Origin: Candidatus Omnitrophota bacterium
Lineage (GTDB): Bacteria > Omnitrophota > Gorgyraeia > Gorgyraeales > Gorgyraeaceae
Assembly (NCBI GenBank): GCA_043814965.1
Contig: JBDRJN010000014.1
Span: 3,084 to 67,083, forward strand
Direction of reading: 5' to 3'
Length of the DNA stretch: 64,000 nucleotides
In this document: positions 26,601 to 58,603 of the stretch, piece by piece
Position numbering within the stretch: position 1 is the stretch's first letter
Layout: every line of letters starts with the position of its first letter
The notes under the pieces: model-generated
What the model was told of the DNA's origin: nothing
Seen by the model: the letters and a program-made list of their open reading frames with translations, nothing else
Databases searched by the model: none
Translations under genes and position numbers: made by a program

Positions 26601-26606
26601 TAAAAA

Positions 26607-26707
26607 CTCGAAATACTAAATTCGAAATCCGAAACTCGAAACAATGTCTAAATTTAAATTCGAATTTATAATTTGTTTCGGATTTCGGGTTTCGTGCTTC
26701 GAATTTC
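26607..26707. repeat. inverted arrays of tandem CGAAAYC heptamers (hairpin-forming intergenic element)
   Basis: The 5' arm CTCGAAATACTAAATTCGAAATCCGAAACTCGAAACA (26607-26643) is complementary to the 3' arm TGTTTCGGATTTCGGGTTTCGTGCTTCGAATTTC (26674-26707). The arms flank a 30-nt AT-rich spacer. The element starts 7 nt after the aminotransferase stop codon. Confidence 0.7.
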
Positions 26708-36931: not shown

Positions 36932-38000
36932 TTTTATAGGCGTACTTAGTGTTTTGGTCATCGTACATGAATTCGGGCATTTTATTGTGGCAAAAAGGCT
37001 TGGGATATGTGTTGAAAAATTTTCTATAGGATTTGGGCCTGAGGTAATAGGTATTACAAAGAATGGAACGAGATACATTATCTCTCTCATACCTCTTGGA
37101 GGCTATGTCAAGCTTAAGGGGGAAAACGAAGCTGAAGGATTAAAAGGTGAAAGATCCGAATATCTTTCAAGGACAGTGGGAGAAAGGGCGAGAGTTATTT
37201 TTGCCGGGCCATTGCTTAATTATGTACTGGCATTTTTAGTCTTTTCTTTTGTCTTTATGGCCGGTTCCCCGACACTTACTTCCACTATTGGCAAAATATT
37301 ACCTGGTTATCCAGGAGAGACATCGGGCATTAAAGAAGGAGACCGTATATTAAAGATAAATGATATAGAGGTCAAATATTGGGATGATGTCACGCGAATT
37401 ATACATACTAATAAAGAAAGTGAACTTTATCTTCTGATAGAGAGAGGTCACGAGATATTGAATATCAAGGTATCCCCTAAGGAAGAGGATATGAATACAG
37501 TTTTTGGGACAAAGAAAAGAGTAGGCATCGTAGGTATTATGCCAAACGATGATATCGTATATATAAGATACGATTTTTTTAGATCATTCTATATGGGGGG
37601 TAAAAAATTAGTAGACCTCAGTTATCTGACAGTGAGAGCTCTATGGGCAAGTATAACAGGCAAGGTCCCTTTCAAACAATCCATCACAGGGCCTGTCGGC
37701 ATATTTTATATTACAGGAGAAGCAGCCAAGCTTGGTATAGTATATCTGCTTCAACTCATGGGGGTCTTGAGCATGTCTTTGGCTATATTCAATCTTCTGC
37801 CGTTTCCAGTACTCGACGGAGGGCATCTTTTTTTCCTTGCTATAGAAAAAATACGCAGAAAACCTATATCTATAAAAGTCCAGGAAAATGTGACCCAGGC
37901 TGGGTTTATATTTTTGATGGCGCTGATGCTTTTGGTTGTTTATAATGACCTTATAAGATTCGGCATATTCGATAAGATAGCGGGTTTTTGGCGGAAGTGA
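36915..38000 (+). CDS. rseP: RIP site-2 zinc metalloprotease
   Basis: HEFGHFIVAKRLG (HExxH), a PDZ domain and the LDGG motif are present. Confidence 0.85.
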   Translation: MLSAVSFIGVLSVLVIVHEFGHFIVAKRLGICVEKFSIGFGPEVIGITKNGTRYIISLIPLGGYVKLKGENEAEGLKGERSEYLSRTVGERARVIFAGPLLNYVLAFLVFSFVFMAGSPTLTSTIGKILPGYPGETSGIKEGDRILKINDIEVKYWDDVTRIIHTNKESELYLLIERGHEILNIKVSPKEEDMNTVFGTKKRVGIVGIMPNDDIVYIRYDFFRSFYMGGKKLVDLSYLTVRALWASITGKVPFKQSITGPVGIFYITGEAAKLGIVYLLQLMGVLSMSLAIFNLLPFPVLDGGHLFFLAIEKIRRKPISIKVQENVTQAGFIFLMALMLLVVYNDLIRFGIFDKIAGFWRK

Positions 38001-38009
38001 GATTTATTT

Positions 38010-38263
38010 AAAGCTAAAAAGGAGCTTGTTCACTCATGAGAAAACTTTTCCCCTATAGTGCCAGTATATATTTTGACACTTGGGGCCGCCTTTTATTCTG
38101 TGTTTTGCCGGGACTCGAAAAACTCGTCCGCCAATATGTGTGGCGGACTTCAGACAGTTTCGAGTCTTTTAGCCTCATAAAATGTGACATAGAAACCGCC
38201 AAAACACTTCATAAAAGGCTAAATTTTCTAATTCGCGAACAATCATCCTTTTTAGCTTAAATA
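38010..38263 (+). repeat. structured repeat element copy B (about 254 nt; terminal 13-bp IR AAGCTAAAAAGGA / TCCTTTTTAGCTT; conserved hairpin core at 38113-38155)
   Basis: The core GAAAAACTCGTCCGCCAATATGTGTGGCGGACTTCAGACAG is near-identical to 21035-21075. It is nested in a second IR (GACTCGAAA..TTTCGAGTC). The overlapping ORF 38036..38260 is judged spurious. Confidence 0.5.
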
Positions 38264-38315
38264 TATTTTAGCAAGTTTAATTAGGTTGAAAACATTATAT
38301 GCTACATACTAAAAA

Positions 38316-39401
38316 ATGACACGACAGATAAAAGTTGGAAAAGTTAAGATCGGCGGCGGGGCTCCTGTGTCAGTGCAGTCTATGGTAAAGACTGAAACGA
38401 CTAAGGTCCAGTCAGTCATTAAAGAGATAAAGGCCTTGGAGGATGTTGGGTGTGAGATCGTAAGGCTTGCAGTAAAAGATAATAAAGGAGCTTCTTGTTT
38501 AAAAAAGATAAAGAGTTCTGTCAATATACCCATTGTAGCTGATATTCATTATGACTATAGGCTCGCGCTTTTAGCTATTGAAAACGGGGTGGATAAGATC
38601 AGATTGAACCCGGGCAATATCTATAAAAAAGAACATGTCTTTGAGGTCGCTAGGCATGCTAAAAAGAATAGGATCCCTATTAGAGTAGGGGTGAATTCCG
38701 GGTCATTAAAGACACAAGACACAAGACACAAGACACAAGACACAAGACACAAGTCACAAGACACAAGTCACAAGTCACAAGTTGATATTATGGTGAAGTC
38801 AGCGTTAGATTATATAAAGCTCTTGGAGAAGGCTGGATTTTACGATATAATAGTCTCATTAAAGGCATCGGATGTGCTTATGACAATAGATGCTTATAGA
38901 AAGTTTTCTAAGGCATCAGATTATCCTCTTCACCTTGGCGTAACTGCAGCAGGCCCTAAATCATCTGGCCTGGTCAAGTCTTCTATAGGCATAGGGGTGT
39001 TATTACTAGAAGGCATAGGGGATACGATCAGGGTATCCTTGACAGGGAATTCTTCCAGCGAAGTCATGGCTGCGCAGAATATTTTGCAGGCTATAAACTT
39101 AAGGAGATTTTATCCCGAGATCATCTCTTGCCCAACATGCGGGAGGTGCCAGGTAGATTTGAGCCAGATAGTGGCTAAAGTAGAGGAACGGATTACGGAT
39201 TACGGGTTACGGGTTACGGGTAAAAAAAATCCGAAGATCGCTATAATGGGCTGTGAAGTCAATGGCCCGGGTGAAGCAAAAGAAGCTGATTTCGGCATTG
39301 CATTTGGCAAAGGGGCCGGAGTATTGTTCAAAAAAGGTAAGATTATAAAGAGAATCGAAGAAAAAGACACTATCAAGACACTCTTACGCTATTTAGGGTA
39401 A
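38316..39401 (+). CDS. ispG: 4-hydroxy-3-methylbut-2-en-1-yl diphosphate synthase (GcpE), carrying in-frame heptamer-repeat insertions
   Basis: KVGKVKIGGGAPVSVQSM and the C-terminal 4Fe-4S cysteines (CPTCGRC..GCEVNGPGE) match IspG. The 9 x ACACAAG tandem at 38711-38773 encodes TQDTRHK-type repeats in a surface linker. Confidence 0.9.
   Translation: MTRQIKVGKVKIGGGAPVSVQSMVKTETTKVQSVIKEIKALEDVGCEIVRLAVKDNKGASCLKKIKSSVNIPIVADIHYDYRLALLAIENGVDKIRLNPGNIYKKEHVFEVARHAKKNRIPIRVGVNSGSLKTQDTRHKTQDTRHKSQDTSHKSQVDIMVKSALDYIKLLEKAGFYDIIVSLKASDVLMTIDAYRKFSKASDYPLHLGVTAAGPKSSGLVKSSIGIGVLLLEGIGDTIRVSLTGNSSSEVMAAQNILQAINLRRFYPEIISCPTCGRCQVDLSQIVAKVEERITDYGLRVTGKKNPKIAIMGCEVNGPGEAKEADFGIAFGKGAGVLFKKGKIIKRIEEKDTIKTLLRYLG
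38711..38773 (+). repeat. 9 tandem heptamers (ACACAAG / TCACAAG) inside ispG, in frame (63 nt)
   Basis: Direct reading: (ACACAAG)x5, TCACAAG, ACACAAG, (TCACAAG)x2. A second array at 39186-39222 is (CGGATTA)x2(CGGGTTA)x2. Confidence 0.9.
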
Positions 39402-39426
39402 CTGTGAACGGGGTGCGGGATACAAA

Positions 39427-41157
39427 ATGCGTTGGTCAAAATATTTTATACCTACATTAAAAGAGATCCCTGCTGAAGCAGAGGCAGTAAGCCACAAGCT
39501 CATGATAAGAGCAGGCCTTATAAGAAAACTTGCTTCAGGAGCTTATACTTATTTACCGCTTGGCCTAAAGGTCTTAAAAAAAGTAGAGAATATTATACGG
39601 GAAGAGATGGATAAAAAAGGCGCGATAGAGCTTTTTTTGCCTTCCCTCCAGCCAGTTGAGTTATGGCATGAATCAGGTAGGTATAAGGCCTTGGGAGAGG
39701 ATCTTATAAAGTTTAAGGATAGACATGATCGCGTTATGGTATTCGGGCCTACACATGAAGAAGTTATAACTGACCTAGTCAGAAATCATATAAAAAGCTA
39801 TAGACAACTGCCCATAACATTGTATCAGATACAGACAAAATTTAGAGATGAGGTGCGCCCTAGATTTGGCGTGATGAGAAGCAGGGAATTCATAATGAAG
39901 GATGCGTATAGCTTTGATAGGGACACGCAAGGCCTTGATAAGAGCTATAAGTCAATGTATGAGGCATATGAGGCTATTTTTAAAAGGTGCGGCCTCGAGG
40001 TAATAGCAGTAGAAGCTGATTCAGGGGTCATGGGTGGAGATGTCTCTCATGAATTTATGATGTTAGCTGAAAGCGGTGAAGATAAATTAGCGCATTGCGT
40101 GTCTTGCGGTTATGCTGCAAGTTTAGATGTTGCAAGTTGCAAGACACCTGCCTGCCGGCAGGCAGGGCAAGACACAAATTGCAAGATGCAGGCGATGAAA
40201 GAAGTAGACACTCCAGGGGTGAGCACTATTGAGAAGGTCTCAGAACTCTTAAAGACAAAGCCAGATAAAATGGTAAAAACGCTTATATATATATCGGATG
40301 AGAAACCAGTCGCAGTGCTCATAAGGGGTGACCAAGAAGCAAATGAAGCAAAGATAAAAAAATATCTTAATACTACTTCATTAGAGATGGCAGGCGAGGA
40401 CACTATTAAAAAGGCAACAGGAGGTCCTCTTGGTTTTTCAGGGCCAGTAGGCCTCAAAGATATCAGGATAATAGCTGATAATTCCATAAAGGCCATGTCA
40501 AATTTTATAACAGGAGCCAATAAAAATGACAAGCATCTTTTGAATGTCAATCTGGAAAGAGACCTTAAGGTCAAAGAATATGGGGACCTCAGGATGGCTG
40601 GAGAAGGCGATATATGTCCTAAGTGTTCGAAAGCAATAAAGATAGAAAATGCTATTGAAATGGGGCATGTATTTAAATTGGGCTTAAAGTATTCAAAGGC
40701 AATGTCAGCTGAATTCCTGGATGAGGACAGTACGCTTAAGCCAATGGTAATGGGATGTTATGGCATAGGGGTCAATAGGATCATAGCAGCTTCTATAGAG
40801 CTGCATAATGATAGATCAGGCATAATATGGCCTAGGTCTATTGCGCCATTTGATGTAGTTATAGTTCCTATAAATTATGAAAAAGAGGCTGTTAAAACAT
40901 GCGCTGACAAAGTATATAACTTATTGAAAGAAAATAAGTTAGATGTATTGATAGATGATAGGGACCTGAGCGCTGGAGTAAAATTCAATGATACTGAACT
41001 TATAGGAATACCTCTTCAGGTAGTTATAGGCGAAAGAGGCCTTAAAAATAATACAGTTGAGATCAAGGAAAGACAGCAAGGCCAAGCAAAGCAAGTCAAA
41101 AACCAAGCCAAAGATATTCTAGCAGCAATCCTTAATCTATCGGATAAAGATCAGTAA
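39427..41157 (+). CDS. proS: prolyl-tRNA synthetase (bacterial type with INS editing domain)
   Basis: Class II aaRS motifs and the ProRS-specific anticodon-binding C-terminus are present. Length is 576 aa. It contains a palindromic repeat insertion at 40124-40192. Confidence 0.9.
   Translation: MRWSKYFIPTLKEIPAEAEAVSHKLMIRAGLIRKLASGAYTYLPLGLKVLKKVENIIREEMDKKGAIELFLPSLQPVELWHESGRYKALGEDLIKFKDRHDRVMVFGPTHEEVITDLVRNHIKSYRQLPITLYQIQTKFRDEVRPRFGVMRSREFIMKDAYSFDRDTQGLDKSYKSMYEAYEAIFKRCGLEVIAVEADSGVMGGDVSHEFMMLAESGEDKLAHCVSCGYAASLDVASCKTPACRQAGQDTNCKMQAMKEVDTPGVSTIEKVSELLKTKPDKMVKTLIYISDEKPVAVLIRGDQEANEAKIKKYLNTTSLEMAGEDTIKKATGGPLGFSGPVGLKDIRIIADNSIKAMSNFITGANKNDKHLLNVNLERDLKVKEYGDLRMAGEGDICPKCSKAIKIENAIEMGHVFKLGLKYSKAMSAEFLDEDSTLKPMVMGCYGIGVNRIIAASIELHNDRSGIIWPRSIAPFDVVIVPINYEKEAVKTCADKVYNLLKENKLDVLIDDRDLSAGVKFNDTELIGIPLQVVIGERGLKNNTVEIKERQQGQAKQVKNQAKDILAAILNLSDKDQ
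40124..40192 (+). repeat. heptamer/palindrome element inside proS coding sequence
   Basis: GTTGCAAGTTGCAAGACAC, then the CCTGCCTGCCGGCAGGCAGG palindrome at 40147-66, then GCAAGACACAAATTGCAAG. The same palindrome (1 mismatch) recurs at 49555-49574. Confidence 0.7.
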
Positions 41158-41174
41158 TATATTATCAGTATATA

Positions 41175-41203
41175 TTGACAGGAAAGCGGTTACATGGTAT
41201 ACT
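41175..41203 (+). promoter_or_regulatory. putative sigma70-type promoter of the giant gene (TTGACA-17-TATACT)
   Basis: TTGACA at 41175-80, a 17-nt spacer, then TATACT at 41198-203. A hairpin GCTACTTT..AAAGTAGC lies in the leader. An AAGGAG RBS lies 6 nt before the ATG at 41287. Confidence 0.5.
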
Positions 41204-41286
41204 TATAATAGCTACTTTCAAATACTTTTAAAGTAGCTTTAATAAGTCAAACAAACAGGTTAAATAGGAAAAGTAAGGAGATATTA

Positions 41287-44200
41287 ATGACAGTATGTTC
41301 TTTAAGGAAAACGTGTTCTGTCTTTTTAATAGTGATCTTTACTATTACTAATATTGCCTATGGAGCTCCCAGCGAAAGGTCCTTTTTTAAGAATAAAAAA
41401 GTAGATTATAAGAAATTAAGCACCCAAAGCCAAGAACAGCTCGAGAAGAAAAAGGCTGTTTTAAGCGGTGAAGATGTAAAAAAGACAAGTAAAAAACCTT
41501 CCAAGGCCAAGCAAATAGATTTTAGCGCCCATCTAAGCGATATATCAGAGATAAATATCCCCGGCGAATTAGGAAGAGTCGTTGAGGTATATAAAGCCCC
41601 TGATTCTGAAAAAGACAAGAACAGGCTTGTAGTACATATCCAGGACCTCCATGCCAATCCTGAGGCTACACTTAACCTGGCAAGTATATTGGAGATATTG
41701 GTAAAAGATTATAACCTGGATCTAATATGTTCTGAAGGCGCGGAAGGAGAGGTTGATACATCAAGCGTTTCCAGTTTTCCTGACGCTGAGATCAGGAAAA
41801 AGACAGCAAAGCTATTTGTAAATTCAGGAGAACTTACAGGAGAAGAATACCTTTCTATTACCAAATACCCGGATCTTCCTATATGGGGAATAGAAGATAA
41901 GGATATATATTTCAATAATATAGTCCAGTTCAATAAGATAATGCAGTTTTCCAACTCCAGTTATGTCTTTATCTCGCAGTGCACAAATGCGCTGGATGCG
42001 TTGAAGCCTTACATATACTCAAAAGAGATCCTGGAATTGGACCAGAAAGAATCCGAATACGATAATGGTAATCTGGAGACATCTTTGTACCTGGATTATG
42101 TCTTGCCTTATGTGGAGCAGTTCAATATATCGAAAGACAAATATAAAAATATCTCTCTTTTAACAGAGACGATGGCTAAAGAAAAGACTATTGACCAGCA
42201 AAAGGTGATGAAAGAATCGCAAGACCTTTTAATGGACCTTCAGAATATGCTTTCAAGAAAAGGCGGAGAATCTGACCTGGAAGCCCTGATAGCCAAGGCA
42301 GAGCTTTTTAAGAATAAGAAAATATCGCCATTCTCTTTCTATAATTACCTGAAGGGCCTGGCTCAGAAGCACCTGAAGGAGAAATCAGAGAGCTATACGT
42401 ATCTAAATGAATTTATAGATTATCTTACCAAGGTAAACGATCTTGATGCTTCAAAGCTTTTTACTGAGATCGGGGAATTAAGTTATGAGATAAAAGATAA
42501 TCTTGCCAAAAAAGACGAAGAAAAGCTTCTTACAAAGGTTATACGTAATGCAAAGTTCTTGACAGGGTTTTTTAGCCTCAAGATATCCAATGAAGAGCTT
42601 GACTACTACCTGGAAGACAAACCTTCTTTTGAAGTATCATTCTTTAAGGAATTCCTAGAGCCCAACCTTAAAAAATATAATATTACGAGTTACGTGGATT
42701 ATAACCCTGAATTTATAGACAATAAGTTCAGCGAAATAGAGGAGTTTTACGGTACTGTAAAATCGCGAGATTTTTCCATGTTCAATAATTCCATGTCTCA
42801 GATCGAAAGTAGAAGAGCAAAAGTCGCAGCCCTTATATCAGGAGGTTTTCATACCAGGGGCATAACAAAACTATTAAGAGAAAAAGGTTATTCTTATGTA
42901 GTTATATCCCCTTACTCTTCGCAGGAGACAGATGAAGAGAACTACCACTTCCTTCTCTCAGGACAGCGTAAACCAATAGAAGAGCTTATAAGGCAGCTAG
43001 ACGTAGAAGAGACAGTCGATAGATTATCTTCCAATGATAATCTGCGCAGTTTAATGCGTTTCGGGAATAATACAGTAGAGGCCTGGAATAATTCTGTAGT
43101 ACCTCAAAAGATAGCTGAGATATTGGGATTAAAAGTAGAAGACGTACAATTAGAGCCTTTATTGAATGATGCTGCAATTGTGCTGGGATTAAGCAGCGGC
43201 GCAGAAGCATGGCATAGTTCTCCGGTAGGTATGGAAGTAAGGTCTCCAAGAAAAGGAGAGATAATATTAAAGTTCGATGATAATAGTTATGTAAAGATGA
43301 CGAGCCTTGGAGAGGTAAAACGTGTAGATAAAAAAGAATTCAGAGGAAAGACCACTCTTAGCATAACTCCTAATGTAGACGGAACTATAAATGTAGCTGA
43401 AACTGATAGAGGCAAAGGTTCGCCCCTGGAGTTGTTAAAATTCATGGTGGATGGGACATATTACGAAGGGGAGTCCATATCTAAAGCAGATTTAGTAGCT
43501 GGAAGGTCTTTTTCTGTATCTACTATAGACCTAGAGATAAAAAGCCTTACAGAACTCGGACTATTAAAAAAGAATAGTGATGGGACATATGAACTTACGA
43601 GCTATATAGGCCTAGAGCAATATAATAATATTAAAGCAGTTACAGGTCCTATAGTACAAGTTAATGGTAAAAACGAGGGATTAAATCGTTATAGGATAGA
43701 CGACCTGTCAGAAGATAAAAAGAATGAATTTAAAAATGCCATAGACTTTGCTGTAACTTACCAAAAGACCCCATCAAACTTTCTAAAAAAATTAATCCTT
43801 GCAGGAGGCAAGCTTGATATCAAAGGTACCGGTGAATCTGGCGAGGCCCTTGCGCTTTATTATGCGGATCTAGCTGAGACTTTTGCAGGACCTACTGGAA
43901 TAGAATCTGTGGCATTGAGTAAAAATATTACATTTGCTGAGGCAGGGCTTATAGCAGATATTGTAGATCATGCCAGCGCGCTTAATATTACAGGAACCAG
44001 AAACAGCATAAGTCAAGCTTTTGAAACAGCAAAAAATCTTTCTGTATCACGAGAGGAGCCTAGATACAGTATAAAAGAGACGTCACTAAGTTCAGATTTT
44101 GAAATAGCAAGAAATCTTCCTGATATGTATAGAGATCTTTCCCCGGAAAAGATCAAAGACAAGATCATAATAGTACGAGGCAATTTAAACGCGCCTTTGG

Positions 44201-47200
44201 ATAAATCTGGAGAAGTAAGTGATCCTACCAGGCCGGATAATATTGATAAGGCTGTTACTTATATAATTGAAAATGGAGGTACACCTGTTGTCTATGGCCA
44301 TCTCATGAGGCGTGAAAATAATATATCTATGGAGCCAGTAGCTAGTTATTTATCAGATAAATACGGACAAGATGATGTAGTTTTTCATAAGGGTAGCATC
44401 ACTAAAGACGGATTAACGATCAGTCGAAATAATATTATAAGGGGTAAGATCAATATCCTTGAAAATATAAGGCTCGTAGACAAAGAAAATGAAGCAAAGC
44501 TTGGCAGGCAGATCGCATCTCTTTCTGAAGACAAGATATTAGTAGCTGACGCGCTTGGGGATGAAGGATCAAGCGATGTCGTACATGTCTATAATGCCGC
44601 TAGCGAGGTATATCAGGGGCCGGAAGAAAGAAGAGAATTTTCTGAATTGGAAGATACACTGAAAAATGGCGTTGATGTAGTATTGTTCGGTGGATTTAAA
44701 ATAGAAAAACTGGATCTTTTATTAAGGCTGGTCGATGCCCTGAGAGATGGCGGTGTTGTCTTATTGGGGTCAGGACCTTCAGACCACATCAGGAACGATC
44801 CTGAAATAAAAGAGCAATTAAAAGGCCTTATTGATGCAGGAAAGATCATCTTAGCTGAAGGGGATAAGTATTATTTTAATAAAGTAATGGGAAGGGACAT
44901 GCCAGGAGATATCTCTTCTCAGGATCTAGAGAGATACTCCAATATCCTTGATAACCTTAAACCAGGCCAGAGGGTCTTATTTAATGGGACAATGGGTTTT
45001 ATGGAGAAAAAGGATAGTAATGAAAATATAGAAATATCCTATAGAGAAGGTACTAAAAAGATACTCGAGAAAGTATCTGAGATCAGTGAAAAAGGCGTAA
45101 AAGGCCTTGGAGTCGGAGGAGATGGTACAAAATGGGCCAGGCATTATAGATTGAATAAGAAGGAAAATATAATGCTGTCTACAGGAGGTGGAGTTTCCCT
45201 AAGCCTTATTACGCATGAACCTTTAAAAGGTACTAAAGCGCTTTCCAATAGAGCGCAAACTCAGAAAATTGCAAAGCGAGATTTTTCATCTGAGTATGGC
45301 TATGTAGCTGAGGATTTAGTCGGTCCGCTAGCTAGCATGGCAAAAACTACCAGCCAGGATAATACACCTTACGCAAAATACGCATCAGATAGAGATAATG
45401 TAAGCCCCTCTACCATAAAGACACAACCTGCTATTGGCCGTCCGGAAGCGGTAGCGTATGAGGCAGATTCTCCTTATAATATAATAACGCAGTTACAAGA
45501 AGCTAAAAAAACTGACTATGCCCGAAACTTACAGGATGTAATGAGTGTCGCATTAAGGGATTATCCGGAATTGAGAGATATTTCTTTTAAGATAAAAATA
45601 ATCAGCAACAGCCAGGAAAACCTTGCTGAATATATGCCAGGCCAGGAAATGATAACAATAGATGAGTCTATACTCGCTAATTTTGAACTTATGCGCCAGG
45701 AGCTTATCTCGGAAGAATTCCGCCATATGCTATATAATAATCTTGTACGGTCAGTAAGAAATAAAGATGTAACGCCTAGGCAGAGACTTGTAGAAGAGGC
45801 TGCCACAGATATGCAGAAATTTAGGGACCTTCTTAGGATACAGACAGCCGAGGGAAGAGCTGCTCTTATCGGGCCTTTGATCTATTCTACTGATAAATTC
45901 AATTTCTACAGGCTGCTTTTGAGAACTATACCGCAGGGAAAAGAAAGGAACGATGTCCTGGATATTCTTCTTCGAGACCATTTTATATCAGAAGATTTTA
46001 GAAATAATTATAGTGAGCGTAAAGGGATAAGCGGAGATGAGGAAAGGCAGGTAGAGGCCTTAAATACTCATTATAAAAACAATTCTGTATTTTCTCCGGA
46101 ATTACAGCGCTTGATGATTAAACCTATAACGCTTGAAGAAGTGAAAGCTTATGAAACCGATTTCAATAATATCAGGCTAGAGTATAGAGCGCAGAAGATG
46201 GCTGAAAAGCCGGCATCAGCTGAAGATACATGGACAGAGGTTACTAAGAAGTTTACAGATAAGGCAGAACAATATGAACGTGCAATGATACTTACTGAGT
46301 TAGATAAGATCGCTAGCGGCGACTATGTGGCTGAGGATCTAATCGGTCCGCTAGCTATTAACCAGCTTCCTATAGATGTAAGTGATGATAGAGATACTGT
46401 AGGAATTCTTTTGTCAGCAGAAGGGTTACTTGGAAAAGGTTTTATTAGCGAGAGAAGAATAGATAATAACAATGATCTCGACAGGACCAATCCTTCTAAG
46501 CCAGCTTACTATATTGACCGCATGGAGAATGCATTAGAAGAGCACAGTACATATGATGAGATAATACTCGCAGTTATAGATGACAGGATGAAAACACAGG
46601 TCTGGAAAGAGATTAAAACTGCATTCCAGGGTACTGAATACGAGTTTCTTTTACGTAAGATTAGAGTAGTAAGCAAGATCAAACCTGATACAGGCAATCA
46701 TGATGCAGTAATTGAACTGCTTGATTCAGCTGTAGGTGTAGGAAAAAAGGAAGATAATGATAAAGGTCGTTTCCTTATTATACAGACTGCCGGAAGCGGA
46801 TCTAGGAACTATCCTTTAACAGCAACTGCTAAAGGCAATAAGGGCCTAGTACAGGTACCGGGAGATATTGATGGTAAGGCAGTGTTCAATAATATTATTC
46901 AGACTATCTGCCAATCACATCAGCTCCTTGATGATACCCCATCTGGGACAGTTACTGTGCTGGGATGTGACCAGCTTTGGGCTGTAGCTAATTCAGTAAA
47001 AGGTAGTGGTGCAGGCTTAGATATTCTTGGCAATAGTGTTAGCATGGATAATGTTATTAAAGAACTCGTAGATCTAGGGATTATAAATGGAGTAGAAAAC
47101 AGCAAAATTATTTCTGATCTAACTGAAGAAGAGATTGCTTTAAGAATAGACTATCTTTTTGACCCTAAGATCAGAACTGAAGAAGTAGGTCTAAAATGGA

Positions 47201-49509
47201 GAGGAAAGACAGTAGCAGCCCTAGCACCTAGTCTATATGAGATGTCTGAATTAGGTCATTTATGGTCAGGGGAAGGAACATACCTGGATAGCATGATAGA
47301 AAAACCCAATAACTGGGATATGTTAAAACCTATTCTAGAAAAAGGTTCGACAAATTTTAATTGGTGGAACCATCGTTATAGTATAAGCGGAGCAAAGAAA
47401 GCAGTTGAAATATATAAAGATCATATAGGAGAAGGCCTTGATATCTCCAATGATGTACTGCAGGTTGTAGGTAAAGAATATGAAGATTGGCGCGCTTTAA
47501 GGGTAATGCAGATTAAAAAATTAGCTAGTATTGAAGACGGCAGGAAAGTTAGATTACCCGACGAAGAAGAAACAAGACTGAAAAATATATATATGCTTGC
47601 TTCAGACTTTCATAAGGCATTGGGCAGCTCTATAGGTTATATTGACTTAGGGAAGGATTCAGTGTTTGCAGATACAGGAAAGAATACTGTTTTATTGGAG
47701 TCATATCTTAAAATCTTCAATAATACAAAAGAAGGAGAATTGCTGCGAAGACTTTGTAATATTAAAGAAAGGAATTTTCTTGCGCCCAATGTGCTTAGTT
47801 TTGGTTCACCCAAGTTAAACGAAGCTTTTAAAGCAGGCAAGATAAAAGTAGCAGAGAACGCAAAGGTAATATTTATTGACTCTGATAATGTGCTTGAGGC
47901 TGATATAAAAGCTGGAGGGAGCCTTATAATAGATTCTTGCATAGAAAAGCTTAATGTCAAAGGCAGCGGCCTTGTCTGTTATGTTCGCGAAGAAGGTGTA
48001 GTAGATTTAGAAGAGGGCAAAATTGTAGCTGATGTGGTTAATAAAAATAGTGAACTTGAGCGCATAGTAGAAGACCTAGCTGGAGATCCAAAGGCCAAAG
48101 GTGCCTCGCATCATAGATTTTCACCTGTTATTGAAACGCTAGGAGCTATTAAAGTGGCAAAGATATACGATGATGCCAAGAGATCATTTGAGGCTAGTGT
48201 TAGAGGTAAACAAGCGACAGGCCAGTCTCTCCTTGGCGGTATGGCAGAGGGGATAGGCGTAGATGAATATTCTAGTATAGAGACTAGCAGCCTTAGTGAA
48301 GCTGAAAAAGAGGCGATAACTAGAGAAGCTCTTTCGAATGCAATAGATAATTTTACAAACCTTGAATTATTCAATAAGGTCTTAAATAATTCTACCTCAA
48401 CATATATTACAAGAAACGGCCAGATAACTACTTCTGATGCTGGAGACCTTGGTGCAGCTTTCACGGATTCTGGATTATTGGACCTAGCCATAGAGGCTGG
48501 TATGGAGTTTCCTGTCAATGGTGTTGTAATATCCAAAAATGCCGGGTTAGAGAATGCCCCTATAGAGATAATAAATTCTGTAGCTAGGCATAGTGCTAAA
48601 AAAGATATATTCTTGAGCGCGCTACAGGATATTAAATCAGGCACATTAACTACAGATAATCTGACTCCAGTCGAACTTGAATTCTTATCAGCCGTAAAAG
48701 ACTTTACGGAACTTTCTATCTTTACAGGTTTATTTAGTGAAAATGGGCCTGATTTTATAAAGCTTGATCCAAATGGCTCGGTAAATACATCCGACCTTAT
48801 AGAGCTGAATCTAGAGTTTAGCGATTTAGGTATAATGGAATACGCCAATGATATTGGTCTAGAATTGGATGGAGTAGTGATTTCTGGAGATACTACTACT
48901 GCAGCAGCTGACATGAAGCAGGAATTCGGCCTTAGTTATCAAGATATTGTCTCAACTGACCTAGATGAAGTTGGTGGAGGAGAGGCATTAGGTATTGGCG
49001 GAGAAGAATATAATACTATAGAGACCAGTGGCTTTACTGAAGAAGATCCTATGATTAGTGCTGCTAAGGAAGAACTCAAAAAAGTGACAGAAGCAGTTTT
49101 AAGGCCAGCGCCAAGTTTAGAAACTAGGATGTCCGAACTTTATGATATTTCCTCTAAGGATAAGGTTGACAGTATGAGCCAGATCGATGCTGTATTTGCA
49201 GACAAAGTTATTGGTAATGAGGTAGAGTTCGAGGCATGGCTGCGTGATAAGCGTAACGGAGGCCATGCAGTAGTTATCATAGCAACCGAAGACGAATACG
49301 CTGATGTTGAAAAATATAAAGATATTGCTTACATAAAAGTCTTGGGTAGAGATATAAAAGGCCCAGGTTTTATTAAGAAATTTGAAGAACTAAGAGTATT
49401 GTGCGAATTTAAACAATTTGCGAGTTTTAACTTTGGTGATGTATTAGATGTCTCATCAAATGTTGATGAATACAAGGAAGCATTCGAAGCAGTAGCTGAC
49501 GACATGTAG
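41287..49509 (+). CDS. giant secreted multidomain protein (2740 aa): signal peptide; TraB/GumN-like region; phosphoglycerate-kinase-like domain; sugar-nucleotidyltransferase-like + LbH-like region; acidic repeat-bearing C-terminus
   Basis: Uninterrupted 8223-nt ORF with its own promoter, RBS and terminator. Signal peptide MTVCSLRKTCSVFLIVIFTITNIAYG/AP. Region nt approx 41570-42970 is TraB/GumN-like (LVVHIQDLH..DLICSEG; SGGFHTRGITKLLREKGYSYV). Region nt approx 44160-45230 is PGK-like (VRGNLNAPLD..DPTRPD; GHLMRRE; ILENIRL..KENE; VLFGGFKIEKLDLLLRLVDAL; VLFNGTMGFME; GVGGDGT; STGGGVSLSL). Region nt approx 46770-48040 is NTP-transferase-like (IIQTAGSGSRNYPLTATAKGNKGLVQV; VTVLGCDQLW) with hexapeptide-like repeats (VIFIDSDNVLEADIKAGGSLIIDSCIEKLNVKGSGLV). 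Confidence 0.8.
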   Translation: MTVCSLRKTCSVFLIVIFTITNIAYGAPSERSFFKNKKVDYKKLSTQSQEQLEKKKAVLSGEDVKKTSKKPSKAKQIDFSAHLSDISEINIPGELGRVVEVYKAPDSEKDKNRLVVHIQDLHANPEATLNLASILEILVKDYNLDLICSEGAEGEVDTSSVSSFPDAEIRKKTAKLFVNSGELTGEEYLSITKYPDLPIWGIEDKDIYFNNIVQFNKIMQFSNSSYVFISQCTNALDALKPYIYSKEILELDQKESEYDNGNLETSLYLDYVLPYVEQFNISKDKYKNISLLTETMAKEKTIDQQKVMKESQDLLMDLQNMLSRKGGESDLEALIAKAELFKNKKISPFSFYNYLKGLAQKHLKEKSESYTYLNEFIDYLTKVNDLDASKLFTEIGELSYEIKDNLAKKDEEKLLTKVIRNAKFLTGFFSLKISNEELDYYLEDKPSFEVSFFKEFLEPNLKKYNITSYVDYNPEFIDNKFSEIEEFYGTVKSRDFSMFNNSMSQIESRRAKVAALISGGFHTRGITKLLREKGYSYVVISPYSSQETDEENYHFLLSGQRKPIEELIRQLDVEETVDRLSSNDNLRSLMRFGNNTVEAWNNSVVPQKIAEILGLKVEDVQLEPLLNDAAIVLGLSSGAEAWHSSPVGMEVRSPRKGEIILKFDDNSYVKMTSLGEVKRVDKKEFRGKTTLSITPNVDGTINVAETDRGKGSPLELLKFMVDGTYYEGESISKADLVAGRSFSVSTIDLEIKSLTELGLLKKNSDGTYELTSYIGLEQYNNIKAVTGPIVQVNGKNEGLNRYRIDDLSEDKKNEFKNAIDFAVTYQKTPSNFLKKLILAGGKLDIKGTGESGEALALYYADLAETFAGPTGIESVALSKNITFAEAGLIADIVDHASALNITGTRNSISQAFETAKNLSVSREEPRYSIKETSLSSDFEIARNLPDMYRDLSPEKIKDKIIIVRGNLNAPLDKSGEVSDPTRPDNIDKAVTYIIENGGTPVVYGHLMRRENNISMEPVASYLSDKYGQDDVVFHKGSITKDGLTISRNNIIRGKINILENIRLVDKENEAKLGRQIASLSEDKILVADALGDEGSSDVVHVYNAASEVYQGPEERREFSELEDTLKNGVDVVLFGGFKIEKLDLLLRLVDALRDGGVVLLGSGPSDHIRNDPEIKEQLKGLIDAGKIILAEGDKYYFNKVMGRDMPGDISSQDLERYSNILDNLKPGQRVLFNGTMGFMEKKDSNENIEISYREGTKKILEKVSEISEKGVKGLGVGGDGTKWARHYRLNKKENIMLSTGGGVSLSLITHEPLKGTKALSNRAQTQKIAKRDFSSEYGYVAEDLVGPLASMAKTTSQDNTPYAKYASDRDNVSPSTIKTQPAIGRPEAVAYEADSPYNIITQLQEAKKTDYARNLQDVMSVALRDYPELRDISFKIKIISNSQENLAEYMPGQEMITIDESILANFELMRQELISEEFRHMLYNNLVRSVRNKDVTPRQRLVEEAATDMQKFRDLLRIQTAEGRAALIGPLIYSTDKFNFYRLLLRTIPQGKERNDVLDILLRDHFISEDFRNNYSERKGISGDEERQVEALNTHYKNNSVFSPELQRLMIKPITLEEVKAYETDFNNIRLEYRAQKMAEKPASAEDTWTEVTKKFTDKAEQYERAMILTELDKIASGDYVAEDLIGPLAINQLPIDVSDDRDTVGILLSAEGLLGKGFISERRIDNNNDLDRTNPSKPAYYIDRMENALEEHSTYDEIILAVIDDRMKTQVWKEIKTAFQGTEYEFLLRKIRVVSKIKPDTGNHDAVIELLDSAVGVGKKEDNDKGRFLIIQTAGSGSRNYPLTATAKGNKGLVQVPGDIDGKAVFNNIIQTICQSHQLLDDTPSGTVTVLGCDQLWAVANSVKGSGAGLDILGNSVSMDNVIKELVDLGIINGVENSKIISDLTEEEIALRIDYLFDPKIRTEEVGLKWRGKTVAALAPSLYEMSELGHLWSGEGTYLDSMIEKPNNWDMLKPILEKGSTNFNWWNHRYSISGAKKAVEIYKDHIGEGLDISNDVLQVVGKEYEDWRALRVMQIKKLASIEDGRKVRLPDEEETRLKNIYMLASDFHKALGSSIGYIDLGKDSVFADTGKNTVLLESYLKIFNNTKEGELLRRLCNIKERNFLAPNVLSFGSPKLNEAFKAGKIKVAENAKVIFIDSDNVLEADIKAGGSLIIDSCIEKLNVKGSGLVCYVREEGVVDLEEGKIVADVVNKNSELERIVEDLAGDPKAKGASHHRFSPVIETLGAIKVAKIYDDAKRSFEASVRGKQATGQSLLGGMAEGIGVDEYSSIETSSLSEAEKEAITREALSNAIDNFTNLELFNKVLNNSTSTYITRNGQITTSDAGDLGAAFTDSGLLDLAIEAGMEFPVNGVVISKNAGLENAPIEIINSVARHSAKKDIFLSALQDIKSGTLTTDNLTPVELEFLSAVKDFTELSIFTGLFSENGPDFIKLDPNGSVNTSDLIELNLEFSDLGIMEYANDIGLELDGVVISGDTTTAAADMKQEFGLSYQDIVSTDLDEVGGGEALGIGGEEYNTIETSGFTEEDPMISAAKEELKKVTEAVLRPAPSLETRMSELYDISSKDKVDSMSQIDAVFADKVIGNEVEFEAWLRDKRNGGHAVVIIATEDEYADVEKYKDIAYIKVLGRDIKGPGFIKKFEELRVLCEFKQFASFNFGDVLDVSSNVDEYKEAFEAVADDM

Positions 49510-49554
49510 AGACGTTTTCCAAGCCGTAAGGGAAACTGTCTCTAGCCCAATCGG

Positions 49555-49574
49555 CCTGCCTGCCGGTAGGCAGG
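49555..49574. repeat. 20-bp palindrome CCTGCCTGCCGGTAGGCAGG (copy of the proS-internal palindrome)
   Basis: Identical to 40147-40166 except for the central C/T. It lies 46 nt after the giant gene's stop codon. Confidence 0.8.
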
Positions 49575-49588
49575 GAAAGTGTACCCTA

Positions 49589-49631
49589 TAGGCCTTTTGT
49601 GTACTAAACCTACACAAAAGGCCTATTTTTT
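49589..49631 (+). terminator. Rho-independent terminator of the giant gene
   Basis: Perfect 15-bp stem TAGGCCTTTTGTGTA / TACACAAAAGGCCTA with a 7-nt loop and a T6 tract at 49626-31. Confidence 0.75.
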
Positions 49632-49807
49632 GTAATACTTAAATGCTTAAGTAACAAATCATATTATAGCCGTACCCGGCAAGCCTACGAAAAGACGCTC
49701 GATTGCCCCAGCGAGGCAATCTTTGCTCAGTGCTGCTTCTCGCTCCTCCCACCACTTTTATTAGCGTTGCCTATTATTGAAAGTATTGCAGTAAGTTTAT
49801 TTTTTTC

Positions 49808-49837
49808 TTGACATATTATAGTCTCCTATAGTATATT
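49808..49837 (+). promoter_or_regulatory. putative promoter of rimP-nusA-infB (TTGACA-18-TATATT)
   Basis: TTGACA at 49808-13 and TATATT at 49832-37. A GGGAGG RBS precedes the TTG start at 49872. Confidence 0.35.
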
Positions 49838-49871
49838 ATACATACTCTATTGAAAGGGAGGTGTTTGGATT

Positions 49872-50357
49872 TTGAAGTGGGTTAAGTTTTACCCACTTTT
49901 TTGTTTTATGCTAGACAGGCTCAACGATATCATCCAACCTATCATAAAAGAAGAAAATGCAGAATTAGTAGACCTTATCTATAGAAATGAATCCGGTAGG
50001 CGCATCCTTCGCCTTTTAGTAGATAAAGAAGGCGGGATCACCATGGAAGATTGCGTAAAGATAAATGAACGGATAAGCCAGGCCTTGGATGAAGCTGATA
50101 TTATAAATGAAAAGTTTTTTCTTGAGGTGAACTCTCCCGGGCTTGATAGGCCGTTTAAGAACAAAAGAGATTATGAAAAAGCAGTAGGGAGGTTAGTAAG
50201 AGTTACTCTAAACGCAAAGATCCCTGACAAGATGGAATATATAGCTATCTTAAAGGAAGTCTTGGAGGATAGTATAAAAATAGATGTAAAGAAAAAAGGT
50301 ATAATAGAGATACCTTTTGGGAATATTGTAAGGGCAAGACAGGAAATAGAACTATAA
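49872..50357 (+). CDS. rimP: ribosome maturation factor RimP
   Basis: ELVDLIY..ILRLLVDKEGGI..LEVNSPGLDRP matches RimP. Start is TTG 49872 with an RBS, or ATG 49908. Confidence 0.8.
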   Translation: MKWVKFYPLFCFMLDRLNDIIQPIIKEENAELVDLIYRNESGRRILRLLVDKEGGITMEDCVKINERISQALDEADIINEKFFLEVNSPGLDRPFKNKRDYEKAVGRLVRVTLNAKIPDKMEYIAILKEVLEDSIKIDVKKKGIIEIPFGNIVRARQEIEL

Positions 50358-50358
50358 A

Positions 50359-50399
50359 GGCACAATGTAGGTGGTCCTTAGGGGCCGCCTACATTGTGC
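50359..50399 (+). other. GC-rich stem-loop (12-15 bp stem) between rimP and nusA
   Basis: GCACAATGTAGGTGG, a loop, then GCCTACATTGTGC. No T-tract follows. It immediately precedes the conserved leader motif. Confidence 0.6.
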
Positions 50400-50437
50400 T
50401 GCGACAATACTGTAAGGCACACTTCAGTGCGCCAAAG
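50398..50437 (+). promoter_or_regulatory. conserved 40-nt leader motif copy 1 (upstream of nusA): CTGCGACAATACTGTAAGGCACACTTCAGTGCGCCAAAG
   Basis: 36/40 identical to 53768-53807 upstream of trpS. It contains the hairpin GGCACACT..AGTGYGCC. It ends 23 nt before the nusA ATG. Confidence 0.55.
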
Positions 50438-50459
50438 ACATTAAGATTAGGAGCTAGAC

Positions 50460-51677
50460 ATGAGTCAAGAATTATTAGCAATATTAGACAGCATCGAAAG
50501 AGACAAAGGTATTAAAAAAGAGATATTGATAAGCGCTATAGAGGCTGCTCTTATCAGTGCTGCGCGAAAGAAGGTAGGAAAACATGTTACTGATATAAAG
50601 GTTGAATTTCAGGCTGAGACAGGTGAATTCAAGGTATTCGGGCCTGAAGGAGAAGAACTCGCCGGAGACTTTGGGAGGATCTCTGCTCAGACAGCAAAAC
50701 AGGTCATCATACAAAAGATACGTGAAGCTGAAAGAGACGTGGTGTTTGAAGAATACAAGGGCAAGGTAAATGACATAGCGACAGGCAGTGTGCATAGATT
50801 TGAAAAAGGCGTTCTTGTGGTGGACCTTGGAAGAGCAGAAGGGGTTTTACCAAGGAGAGAGATACCACAAAAAGAAGAATACAGGCAGGGTGATAGGATA
50901 AAGGCCCTTATTTTGGAAGTAAAGAAGACGCCTAAAGGGCCTGAGATATTGCTATCAAGGACCAACCCGGGCCTTGTCAAAAGGCTTTTTGAGCTGGAGG
51001 TCCCAGAGATATATGAAGGCATAGTTGATATAAAAGGTGTTTCTAGAGAGGCTGGGGACCGCTCCAAGATAGCTGTATATTCCAAGGATGACAAGGTCGA
51101 CCCAGTCGGCGCATGCGTTGGTATGAGAGGTCAGCGTGTAAAGAACATTGTCAGGGAACTCGGAGATGAAAAGATCGATATCGTGCGCTGGAGTGTTGAT
51201 ATCGGAGAATTTATATGCGCAAGCCTTAGTCCGGCAGAGATATCTAGCATAAAAACAAACGAGACTTATAGAAAAGCAGAGGTTATAGTGGCAGATGACC
51301 AGCTTTCGCTTGCGATAGGTAAACGCGGCCAGAATGTAAGGCTTGCTGCAAAGCTGACAGGATGGAATATAGACATAAGGAGCAAATCCGAAATAGATAA
51401 ATTAAATTCTATCCCAGTAAAAGAGATAGCCGGTATAGGCCCTAAGACAGAAAAGGCGCTTATAAAATCAGGCTTTAAGACAATAGGAGATATTACAAAA
51501 CTTGATATAAAAGATATCACTGATGTAAAGGGTATTGGCAAAAAGACAGCTGAAAAGATCCTGGAATCAGCCAAGGAATTGATGAAGAGTAAGGTCCATG
51601 AGGCAAGAGAAGAGAAAAATAAAGAGAAAAAACTATCTAATGAGAAGGCAGAAGAAAAGGAGAAGTTAGAAGAATGA
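50460..51677 (+). CDS. nusA: transcription termination/antitermination factor NusA
   Basis: N-terminal domain, S1 and tandem KH domains (GMRGQRVKNIVRELGDEKIDIV; IGKRGQNVRLAAKLTGWNIDI) are present. There is a short C-terminal HhH region. Confidence 0.9.
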   Translation: MSQELLAILDSIERDKGIKKEILISAIEAALISAARKKVGKHVTDIKVEFQAETGEFKVFGPEGEELAGDFGRISAQTAKQVIIQKIREAERDVVFEEYKGKVNDIATGSVHRFEKGVLVVDLGRAEGVLPRREIPQKEEYRQGDRIKALILEVKKTPKGPEILLSRTNPGLVKRLFELEVPEIYEGIVDIKGVSREAGDRSKIAVYSKDDKVDPVGACVGMRGQRVKNIVRELGDEKIDIVRWSVDIGEFICASLSPAEISSIKTNETYRKAEVIVADDQLSLAIGKRGQNVRLAAKLTGWNIDIRSKSEIDKLNSIPVKEIAGIGPKTEKALIKSGFKTIGDITKLDIKDITDVKGIGKKTAEKILESAKELMKSKVHEAREEKNKEKKLSNEKAEEKEKLEE

Positions 51678-53767: not shown

Positions 53768-53807
53768 TTGCGACAACACTGTAAGGCACACTTTAGTGTG
53801 CCAAAAG
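53768..53807 (+). promoter_or_regulatory. conserved 40-nt leader motif copy 2 (upstream of trpS): TTGCGACAACACTGTAAGGCACACTTTAGTGTGCCAAAAG
   Basis: See copy 1. It is preceded by the nested hairpins GCAAAGGC..GCCTTTGC and GGCGCAT..ATGTGCC. It ends 11 nt before the trpS ATG. Confidence 0.55.
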
Positions 53808-53817: not shown

Positions 53818-54798
53818 ATGAAAAAACGTATCTTAAGCGGCATGAGGCCTACAGGGCCACTTCATCTGGGACATCTATTTGGAGCGCTTTCGAATTGGGT
53901 AAAGCTCCAGGATGATTATGATTGCTTTTTTATGGTTGCGGACTGGCATGCGCTTATGAGTGAATATGAAGGCCCAAAGGACATGCCTCGATATACATTA
54001 GAATGTGTTGCTGATTGGATAGCATCTGGAATAGATCCTGAAAAAAGTGCTATATTTGTGCAATCTCATATAAAAGAGCACCTGGATCTATTTATGATAT
54101 TTTCAACATTTGTGCCGCTTGGGTGGCTTGAGAGGTGTCCTACGTATAAGGAGCAGCTTAGGGAGGTCACTACTAGGGAGCTTCATACCTATGGGTTTTT
54201 AGGATATCCTGTTCTCCAGGCTTCTGATATATTGCTGTATCATGCAGATATTGTCCCTGTAGGAAGAGACCAACTCCCGCACCTGGAACTTACTAATGAT
54301 ATAGGGGCAAAGTTCAACAATCTATACGGGAATACATTTAATGAGATAAAGCCGCTTCTTACTAATACTCCAAAACTATTAGGTACAGATGGACGGAAGA
54401 TGAGCAAATCCTATAGCAATTTTATTGCGCTCGGTGATACTGAAATAGATATTAAGAAAAAATGCTCCTCTATGTTTACAGACCCCAAGAGGATAAAGCT
54501 GACAGACAAAGGCCATCCGGATGAATGTAATCTTTATTCATATTTTGAGCTTTTTAAAAAAGATCGTTTAGAGGATGTATATGAATATTGCATAAATGCA
54601 AAAAAAGGCTGTACAGAGTGTAAAAGCGGACTAGCAAAGGTTATCTCGGATTACCTGTCTGATATAAGAAACAAGAGAGAAAAGCTCCTGAAAGATAAAG
54701 ATACGCTGATAGATATATTGAGAGAAGGAACCAAGAAGGCAAGTAAGGTAGCATCAGAGACGATAAAAGAAGTTAAGCAGAAAGTCGGTTTAACTTAG
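53818..54798 (+). CDS. trpS: tryptophanyl-tRNA synthetase
   Basis: The HIGH-type motif (PTGPLHLGHLFG) and the KMSKS motif match class I TrpRS. Confidence 0.9.
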   Translation: MKKRILSGMRPTGPLHLGHLFGALSNWVKLQDDYDCFFMVADWHALMSEYEGPKDMPRYTLECVADWIASGIDPEKSAIFVQSHIKEHLDLFMIFSTFVPLGWLERCPTYKEQLREVTTRELHTYGFLGYPVLQASDILLYHADIVPVGRDQLPHLELTNDIGAKFNNLYGNTFNEIKPLLTNTPKLLGTDGRKMSKSYSNFIALGDTEIDIKKKCSSMFTDPKRIKLTDKGHPDECNLYSYFELFKKDRLEDVYEYCINAKKGCTECKSGLAKVISDYLSDIRNKREKLLKDKDTLIDILREGTKKASKVASETIKEVKQKVGLT

Positions 54799-54900: not shown

Positions 54901-54903
54901 AAA

Positions 54904-58462: not shown

Positions 58463-58603
58463 AAAATCAAAAATAAAAATGCAAAATGACAAATTAAAGT
58501 TAAAAAATAAATAGCCCAACATATAGACAAGCTATAATTTTATATTTTGATTTGTAATTTTGATATTTAATCTTTAATTTTTAATTAAAAAAGAGGTGTT
58601 TAT

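Follow-up and report, generated by a model that had tools for sequence, protein, structure and literature searches.

The DNA studied here, referred to below as the window, is a stretch of 64,000 nucleotides (nt) from a Candidatus Omnitrophota bacterium (GenBank assembly GCA_043814965.1, contig JBDRJN010000014.1, positions 3,084 to 67,083). Its GC content is 39%, and the open reading frames (ORFs) taken as real genes all lie on the forward strand. They include proS, coding for a prolyl-tRNA synthetase (ProRS), and a giant gene that follows it. A GC-rich palindrome of 20 nt lies in frame within proS (copy 1), and a second copy with a single substitution is found in the 3' untranslated region (UTR) of the giant gene (copy 2; Table 1). 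Both had been reported in a first-pass annotation of this sequence, and both could be located; the translation given there for the proS segment, ..ASLDVASCKTPACRQAGQDTNCKMQ.., is the same as our in-frame reading. In this study, we characterized the two copies and their counterparts in other genomes, and we conclude that both sites are probably copies of a dispersed insertional module.

Table 1. Features around the two palindrome copies (window coordinates).
Feature	Coordinates	Strand	Remarks
(AAGACAC)x10 array inside ispG	38709-38781	+	Same heptamer family as the proS site
proS, bacterial-type ProRS, 576 aa	39427-41157	+	Pfam tRNA-synt_2b, tRNA_edit, HGTP_anticodon
Left heptamer units CAAGTTG CAAGACA	40133-40146	+	Abut the insert
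Copy 1, perfect 20-nt palindrome CCTGCCTGCCGGCAGGCAGG (C variant)	40147-40166	+	Inside proS
Net 21-nt insert (palindrome + G), ProRS codons 241-247 (PACRQAG)	40147-40167	+	
Right heptamer units CAAGACA CAAATTG CAAGATG	40168-40188	+	Abut the insert
Giant ORF, 2740 aa	41287-49509	+	TAG stop
First hairpin of the giant-gene 3' UTR	49507-49544	+	
Copy 2, CCTGCCTGCCGGTAGGCAGG (T variant, C13->T)	49555-49574	+	Non-coding; 3' UTR of giant gene
Intrinsic-terminator-like hairpin (16 pairs) and T run	49588-49632	+	13 nt 3' of copy 2

At up to three mismatches, the window holds exactly two matches to the palindrome, and 100 dinucleotide-preserving shuffles hold none. No further copy was found in the 64-kb window, even when up to six mismatches were allowed. 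Reading the sequence, we found that the C variant has zero stop codons across the six frames and that the T variant would create a TAG in the frame of proS. This fits the presence of the C variant in the coding copy and of the T variant in the non-coding one.

The proS copy is flanked by direct heptamer units and not by inverted arms. When the 21-nt insert is removed in silico, a perfect CAAGACA-CAAGACA dimer is regained. The ProRS of the window is 100% identical to a protein at NCBI from a 'Candidatus Omnitrophota' metagenome-assembled genome, and its insert is located in a variable linker, with the catalytic core (..CGYAAS) on one side and the editing domain (tRNA_edit, residues 262-376) on the other. 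An alignment of the 120 best Omnitrophota orthologues revealed that the stretch from ..CGYAAS to KEVDTPG is hypervariable in both sequence and length. Some linkers display a 7-residue periodicity, e.g. SDKRQATSDKAKQK, whose DNA is an uninterrupted (AAGCGAC)3 array in locus L170, and linkers in this set also hold assorted peptides from GC-rich palindromes. The peptide PACRQAG was present in none of the 119 other Omnitrophota enzymes. In the nearest relative (P0002, 79% identity), a different GC-rich element of 30 nt occupies the same junction, between AAGACAC and AGGACAC. A distant orthologue, P0089 (locus L122), carries a degenerate 21-nt copy, CTGCCTACCGGCAAGGCAGGC, in another reading frame and between AAGCGAC and AAGGGAC, at the place of the unbroken array in L170; in a BLASTP comparison with P0047, this copy corresponds to an exact 7-residue gap. 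Moreover, the region aligns to the variable linker that precedes the editing domain in the Pseudomonas aeruginosa enzyme (5ucm), being just 5 residues longer. Altogether, these comparisons indicate that the segment is lineage-specific, a point that the first-pass annotation had left to an orthologue alignment, and that the linker, a permissive site, has received insertions more than once. Within this surface linker, the proS copy is most probably carried as a neutral passenger.

The 30-nt element of the nearest ProRS relative (locus L121, 3107-3136) reads CCTCCTTCGCCAAGGCTACGGAGGGCAGGC and encodes the peptide SFAKATEGRQ. The viral contig L149 holds relatives of this element (at 3036 and 9047), which suggests that it belongs to a second widespread mini-element family.

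Copy 2 starts 46 nt past the TAG that closes the giant ORF; it follows a G (49554), as in the common 21-nt form consisting of G plus the palindrome. The 3' UTR of this gene folds at -59.4 kcal/mol (z = -7.25) into three hairpins, of which copy 2 is the middle one and the last has a terminator-like stem and a T run. Copy 2 does not itself qualify as an intrinsic terminator, because the sequence next to it is GAAAGTG and not a T run. No Rfam match was found between 37500 and 51000. The stem-loop of copy 2 might affect the stability of the giant-gene mRNA. As for the giant ORF, its sole Pfam family match is to phosphoglycerate kinase (residues 955-1151), and the syntenic giant gene in locus L170 encodes 5732 aa.

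Beyond the window, we scanned one genome per GTDB species (596 Gb) with the query CCTGCCTGCCGGYAGGCAGG. The exact 20-mer was present in at least 120 species-genome stretches, and a chance expectation of about 1.6 matches was calculated by us for uniform base composition, with fewer at the GC content of the carriers (35-48% for most of them). According to record titles, the matches listed comprise 42 Bacteroidota, 29 Patescibacteria, 11 Desulfobacterota or Bdellovibrionota, 9 Planctomycetota or other members of the PVC (Planctomycetota, Verrucomicrobiota, Chlamydiota) group, 8 Omnitrophota and 4 Nitrospirota, plus others. The carriers include isolate genomes and assemblies released as chromosome or complete sequence; the Bacteroidota isolates include Winogradskyella echinorum (KCTC 22026), Flagellimonas yonaguniensis, Olivibacter oleidegradans (CCM 7765), Longitalea luteola and Flavivirga sp. 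WWE3 MEWB01000001, Flagellimonas NZ_OZ247584 and Nitrospiraceae CP070737 are among the carriers that are complete or nearly so. In IMG/VR, where the C and T forms were scanned together, 47 viral stretches matched, and one 29-kb contig carries at least six copies. As controls, two palindromes of identical composition, made by exchanging the arms (GGCAGGCAGGCCTGCCTGCC) and by replacing T with A, respectively, were scanned for in the viral set, and neither had a match. In addition, a metagenome scan for position-4 variants alone returned at least 120 matches. Hence, the possibility envisaged in the first-pass annotation that the palindrome occurs at these two sites only is true within the 64-kb window and false in other genomes. 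In a search of the papers available to us, neither the 20-mer and its sub-strings nor the peptides LPAGRQ and PACRQAG were found in a relevant context.

We compared 179 exact copies, 122 of the C variant and 57 of the T variant. The element is preceded by G or A (by G for 75% of the T-variant copies) and followed by G or T. About one third of the copies lie inside ORFs of at least 100 aa, in differing frames and in unrelated proteins, some of these ORFs being spurious ones in GC-rich DNA. Clear 7-residue inserts of the form xLPAGRQ were detected in a tryptophanyl-tRNA synthetase (TrpRS; locus L094), in FtsK-like, RfbB-like and histidine-kinase proteins, and in other ORFs. Copies are intergenic as well as in frame as seven codons of housekeeping genes, and their sites are independent and non-homologous, the flanks being unique for most of 319 copies. 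The occurrence of the palindrome in coding and non-coding DNA, in all three frames and in many other genomes supports the first-pass view of a mobile short palindrome and not of a convergent protein sequence.

The copies are enriched in period-7 tandem repeats, at hairpin tips and at the centres of their own copies. Flanks with period-7 repeats were found for 5.6% of the copies and 0.3% of the control positions (about 19-fold), and flanks with a complementarity of at least 6 bp for 5.5% and 0.6%, respectively. Self-nested copies, cctgcctgccg[20-mer]gtaggcagg, are present in L020, L026, L059, L065 and L109, and copies at the hairpin tips of larger repeats in L149 and L213. Among the matches listed, position-4 variants comprise 116 single mutants (G->A 79, G->T 26, G->C 11) and 4 doubles; for the position 4/17 pair, 3 of these doubles are compensated and 1 is uncompensated, too few to decide covariation. 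The compensated A8-T13 form was found in 1 viral stretch. With its transition bias and its rare compensated doubles, the variant spectrum appears to be that of a consensus that was copied and then decayed by point mutation.

Some loci show the palindrome within larger structures. In L213 (1100-1420), a structured element of about 230 nt has 35-nt inverted repeats, GTGAAGCTCCCCGCCCACAGGGCGGGGCTTCCGGG, at its ends and the palindrome at one or two internal hairpin tips; elements of this type also occur in L086, L217, L231, L244, L252, L269 and L272. In the viral contig L167, a 21-nt unit resembling the palindrome, CCATGCCTACCGGCAGGCAGG, is repeated in tandem at least 11 times (3915-4142), up to the contig end, and further degenerate copies lie at 3500 and 3770. 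In two Patescibacteria (L021, 4021-4070; L052, 2105-2150), the 20-mer lies exactly between TAGA and GC, in the D-arm of a tRNA-like 5' sequence. ARAGORN made no tRNA call for either site, and these sequences look like 5' fragments or split genes, so that they serve here only to illustrate a 20-nt insertion; in L021, the matching tRNA 3' half is found about 150 nt downstream, past an intact tRNA-Met.

The TrpRS genes allowed us to examine gain and loss of the insert. In the L094 enzyme, GLPAGRQ is an exact 7-residue insert relative to the solved Deinococcus enzyme (PDB 1yi8). The L094 record (CAZFVS010000055.1) is titled 'uncultured Gammaproteobacteria', yet the best matches of its TrpRS belong to Candidatus Daviesbacteria (72-84% identity), and several 'Gammaproteobacteria' titles of third-party annotation records among the matches may be mislabelled Patescibacteria. 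The 120 closest orthologues of this TrpRS, which are Daviesbacteria-like, include 8 with xLPAGRQ at the same codon. These eight are scattered on a neighbour-joining tree, and for six of them the nearest neighbour (80-90% identity) is without the insert. At the DNA level, comparison of five filled and two empty genes delimits a 21-nt insert, GCCTGCCTGCCGG(C/T)AGGCAGG, which interrupts a Val or Ile codon after its first base. In genes without the insert, the site has the form of a small hairpin (GGAA GTT TTCC or GGAATATTCC). The unit is thus defined to the base, and its insertion is precise and without target-site duplication. Codon identity at the shared L, P, A, G, R and Q residues is 52/60 (87%) inside the insert and 317/984 (32%) outside it, and the codons of the insert are minority codons in the TrpRS genes. 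This high identity indicates that the insert is of much more recent origin than the genes or that its sequence is kept constant as DNA.

The window itself is unusually rich in heptamer arrays, in coding as well as intergenic DNA. The heptamer of the proS site is also found between genes at 59656, 63619 and 63651, and its matches in the window total 12, as against 0.31 expected. Relative to the closest available orthologue (L121), IspG carries a 17-residue insertion at the array listed in Table 1, and ispG (GcpE) contains a second in-frame array, (ACGGGTT)x5, at 39188-39221. Intergenic hairpins whose arms are oppositely oriented heptamer arrays lie at 6674-6786, 26604-26706, 54796-54902, 58459-58586, 59640-59680, 61960-62000 and 63613-63675, with arms such as (AAATCCG)n ... 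(CGGATTT)n; the same architecture is seen in the Stahlbacteria contig L112 (830-930, 1630-1870). Two other motifs are repeated in the window. One, of 39 nt (AAAAACTCGTCCGYCAATATGTGTGGCGGACT; 21029-21067 and 38111-38149, 90% identical), lies upstream of an ORF at 21302 and of ispG; a GTCCGCCA/TGGCGGAC hairpin forms part of it, and it matched no Rfam family. The other, of 37 nt (TGCGACAAYACTGTAAGGCACACTTYAGTGYGCCAAA; 50400-50436 and 53769-53805, 92% identical), lies 12-24 nt upstream of the start codons at 50460 and 53818 and might serve both genes as a leader or promoter element. A lone GC-rich hairpin, CCCTGCACCGTACTGGTGCAGGG (21146-21168; 9-bp stem, 70% GC), is located within the intergenic region 20917-21302.

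The dispersed module that we favour as the origin of both sites would be a non-coding, GC-rich, perfect palindrome of 20 nt, often 21 with an extra G, dispersed within genomes and between phyla. In proS, a copy would have split a (CAAGACA)n array encoding the variable linker of ProRS, and it would have survived there because it adds exactly seven codons, brings no stop in frame and falls in a surface linker. The other copy would form a stem-loop in the 3' UTR of the giant gene, directly before the terminator. The module appears to be a non-autonomous mini-insertion, which would be mobilized in trans, and phage-like contigs with copies could plausibly have carried it from host to host. Sites able to adopt hairpin or slipped-strand structures (non-B DNA) may be its preferred targets. 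As candidate routes, a hairpin oligonucleotide might be captured at a break at a hairpin tip, the element might move by a single-strand transposition reaction of the HUH type, or the reaction might be RNA-templated, as in the proposal of Elhai and colleagues for the small dispersed repeats (SDRs) discussed below; any one particular chemistry among these is rather unlikely to be the right one. A stronger version of the proposal can be offered only tentatively, as we hold it to be somewhat less probable than not: that the 20/21-nt palindrome is actively mobile across phyla, that a trans-acting activity, possibly phage-borne, inserts it without duplication into hairpin or slipped DNA, and that it is a general source of 7-residue inserts in essential proteins of Patescibacteria, Omnitrophota, Bacteroidota and others.

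Several results weigh against a mobile module. No filled and empty pair between near-identical genomes was found, so that recent movement is something that we infer, and the nearest ProRS relative is only 79% identical and has a different GC-rich element at the junction. When all ORFs of 169 loci were clustered, no recurring protein family was found beside the copies, nor any RAYT-like ORF (RAYT, REP-associated tyrosine transposase); the clusters contained just phage structural genes and ordinary bacterial families. A parent transposon with abutted ends was considered and discarded, as no unit of consistent size bounded by two half-sites was found. The density of copies is low, with 2 per 64 kb here and about 7 extra copies per Mb elsewhere, and the heptamer and hairpin contexts account for just 5-6% of the copies or so under strict thresholds. 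The same-codon pattern in TrpRS may reflect one old insertion followed by repeated precise loss, or gene conversion. In co-directional intergenic regions, the T variant is oriented with transcription in 6 cases and opposite to it in 6; relative to GC skew, no bias was detected either (25 vs 26; 26 vs 20). This lack of orientation bias leaves a strand-specific mechanism unsupported. Finally, some record titles are unreliable, as illustrated by L094.

We also looked for a parent element on the basis of shared flanks. Only small clusters emerged, and the largest one (12 copies) proved to be a different structured element with the palindrome at its hairpin tips.

The heptamer contexts raise the question of whether the palindrome belongs to the heptamer arrays themselves, as a variant cassette of 21 nt (3 x 7) that originates and spreads with them through slippage during replication, template switching and gene conversion. 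The in-frame form does measure three heptamers, it sits exactly at heptamer unit boundaries in two ProRS lineages, its deletion regains a perfect array, and the tandem array of L167, the 19-fold enrichment of period-7 flanks and the abundance of heptamer arrays in the window all point in the same direction. However, about 94% of the copies are without period-7 flanks at the threshold used, and the TrpRS site is a small hairpin with no heptamer array. Moreover, heptamers vary from locus to locus whereas the palindrome is identical across phyla, and slippage cannot yield the same 20-mer independently in many phyla, the control palindromes having no matches. We regard this explanation as improbable, although it is the strongest of the competitors. 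Less probable still, in our view, is a hairpin under selection for a function, e.g. in protein binding or in the stability or processing of RNA, that is inherited mostly vertically and owes its patchiness to loss. Such a role would suit copy 2, a stem-loop in a highly structured 3' UTR just before a terminator, where C13->T retains a G-U pair in the transcribed orientation (as read from the sequence); the conservation of the DNA is also well above what the encoded peptide needs. This notion is at odds with the even split of T-variant orientations relative to transcription, with the third of the copies that lie in ORFs, in various frames and unrelated proteins, and with the lack of an Rfam family match in the region 37500-51000. 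Variants are mainly uncompensated singles, the compensated A8-T13 form being limited to 1 viral stretch as against 47 for the C and T forms, and identity across unrelated phyla and unrelated loci rules out vertical inheritance.

The recurrence might also be put down to chance, to convergence at the protein level, or to an artefact of sequencing or assembly. The low-complexity sequence, (CCTG)2CC/GG(CAGG)2, and short identity across phyla, a typical sign of contamination, could raise such a suspicion. Nevertheless, zero copies are expected in the window and the same-composition controls gave no matches, and the palindrome is present in isolates and in chromosome or complete assemblies. In conserved enzymes, the insert invariably measures 21 nt and keeps the frame, recurs at the same codon in assemblies of independent projects and shows natural variation (C, T and one G->A). 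The presence of the palindrome in non-coding DNA and in three frames excludes convergence at the protein level. These explanations are effectively refuted.

If the two sites are indeed copies of a dispersed insertional module, the palindrome may rank among the smallest known mobile DNA elements. Identity over 20 nt in unrelated phyla, with neither self-encoded mobility nor vertical inheritance, calls for an unrecognised, widespread insertion activity or for a new horizontal route. The element would also represent one way in which essential enzymes such as ProRS and TrpRS gain short lineage-specific loops. For the alignment and annotation of proteins from uncultivated bacteria, it is relevant that translated palindromes (LPAGRQ, PACRQAG) can mimic protein motifs.

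The first-pass annotation had described the palindrome as similar to REP (repetitive extragenic palindromic), RPE (Rickettsia palindromic element) or Correia sequences, a label that has to be abandoned: the palindrome has no terminal GTAG/CGTC tag, is not only extragenic, measures 20-21 nt, has no terminal inverted repeats (TIRs) around a core and creates no target duplication. With REPs and REPINs it shares the short, GC-rich, dispersed palindrome (20-40 nt in REPs), the non-autonomous nature and a presumed mobilization in trans, which for REPs depends on RAYT/TnpA-REP. REPs carry an unpaired terminal GTAG/CGTC tag and are extragenic, and many of their families are found in a single species (PMC3733652). 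In contrast, the C variant is without the tag, and in the T variant GTAG is central and not terminal. The presence of about one third of the copies in ORFs, including those of ProRS, TrpRS and the FtsK-like, RfbB-like and histidine-kinase proteins, the low density, the cross-phylum identity and the lack of a RAYT-like ORF near the copies at the 169 loci are further differences. RPEs provide a precedent for a selfish palindrome lying in frame in conserved genes, at permissive surface positions. RPEs and Correia elements are 100-155 bp long; according to Ogata and colleagues in 2000, RPEs reportedly measure about 100-150 bp, add 30-50 residues and occur only in Rickettsia. Here, the insert adds 21 nt or 7 residues, and the hosts are Omnitrophota and many other phyla.

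Similar to Correia elements, Neisseria miniature insertion sequences (NEMIS) and miniature inverted-repeat transposable elements (MITEs), the palindrome is non-autonomous, forms stem-loops in transcripts and is often near the 3' ends of genes. Correia elements create a TA duplication. Unlike these elements, the palindrome is one 20-nt unit in its entirety, with no TIR-bounded core and no duplication at the TrpRS sites, and MITEs span 70-300 bp with terminal inverted repeats of 15-30 bp (PMC3733652). Palindromic amphipathic repeat coding elements (PARCELs) resemble it in their coding dyad symmetry and in a sporadic distribution among distant microbes that suggests horizontal spread. However, PARCELs are defined at the protein level, as 25-residue units in tandem within ORFs of unknown function (PMC2996958), whereas the palindrome is a single 7-codon module, also non-coding and defined at the DNA level. 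The GC clusters of yeast mitochondria likewise are short GC-rich palindromes that spread in AT-rich genomes, coding sequence included, by a mechanism that is unknown for the clusters. They are mobile, 30-50 bp long, family-specific and organellar, and we know of no link between them and heptamer repeats.

Among described elements, the palindrome most resembles the SDRs of Nostocaceae, with which we compared it by their description and which the first-pass annotation had not named. Elhai and colleagues reportedly described SDR1-8 in 2008 (in volume 18 of Genome Research, page 1484) as repeats of 21-27 nt that are often found in tandem heptamers and are self-nested. They are also said to have found support from compensatory changes for SDR4-6 and to have proposed an RNA-templated route. 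Like SDRs, the palindrome is very small (20-21 nt), non-coding, hairpin-forming and dispersed, inserts precisely and shows no associated transposase at the 169 loci examined. It is also embedded in heptamers, as illustrated by (CAAGACA)2 in proS, by AAGCGAC/AAGGGAC in L122 and by the excess of period-7 flanks, and it is nested in its own copies and in other palindromes at the loci given above. Two later reports treat SDRs as very small mobile repeats with precise insertion, SDR5 being inserted within HIP1 (PMC5861425, PMC4390886); another citing paper contains an SDR description too (PMC3116915). SDRs are reported from the Nostocaceae lineage only (PMC5861425). The hosts of the palindrome, on the other hand, span many phyla and phage contigs, and none is titled as a cyanobacterium among the matches listed, which number at least 120. 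A perfect palindrome and 7-codon in-frame inserts in aminoacyl-tRNA synthetases are additional differences from SDRs, and the support from compensatory changes for SDR4-6 has no clear counterpart among the few double mutants of the palindrome. To our knowledge, heptamer arrays with embedded small dispersed repeats have been described only in filamentous cyanobacteria. This combination is now seen in several other phyla, including cultured Bacteroidota that are open to experiment, and the novelty of the present case is an SDR-like element with a cross-phylum distribution.

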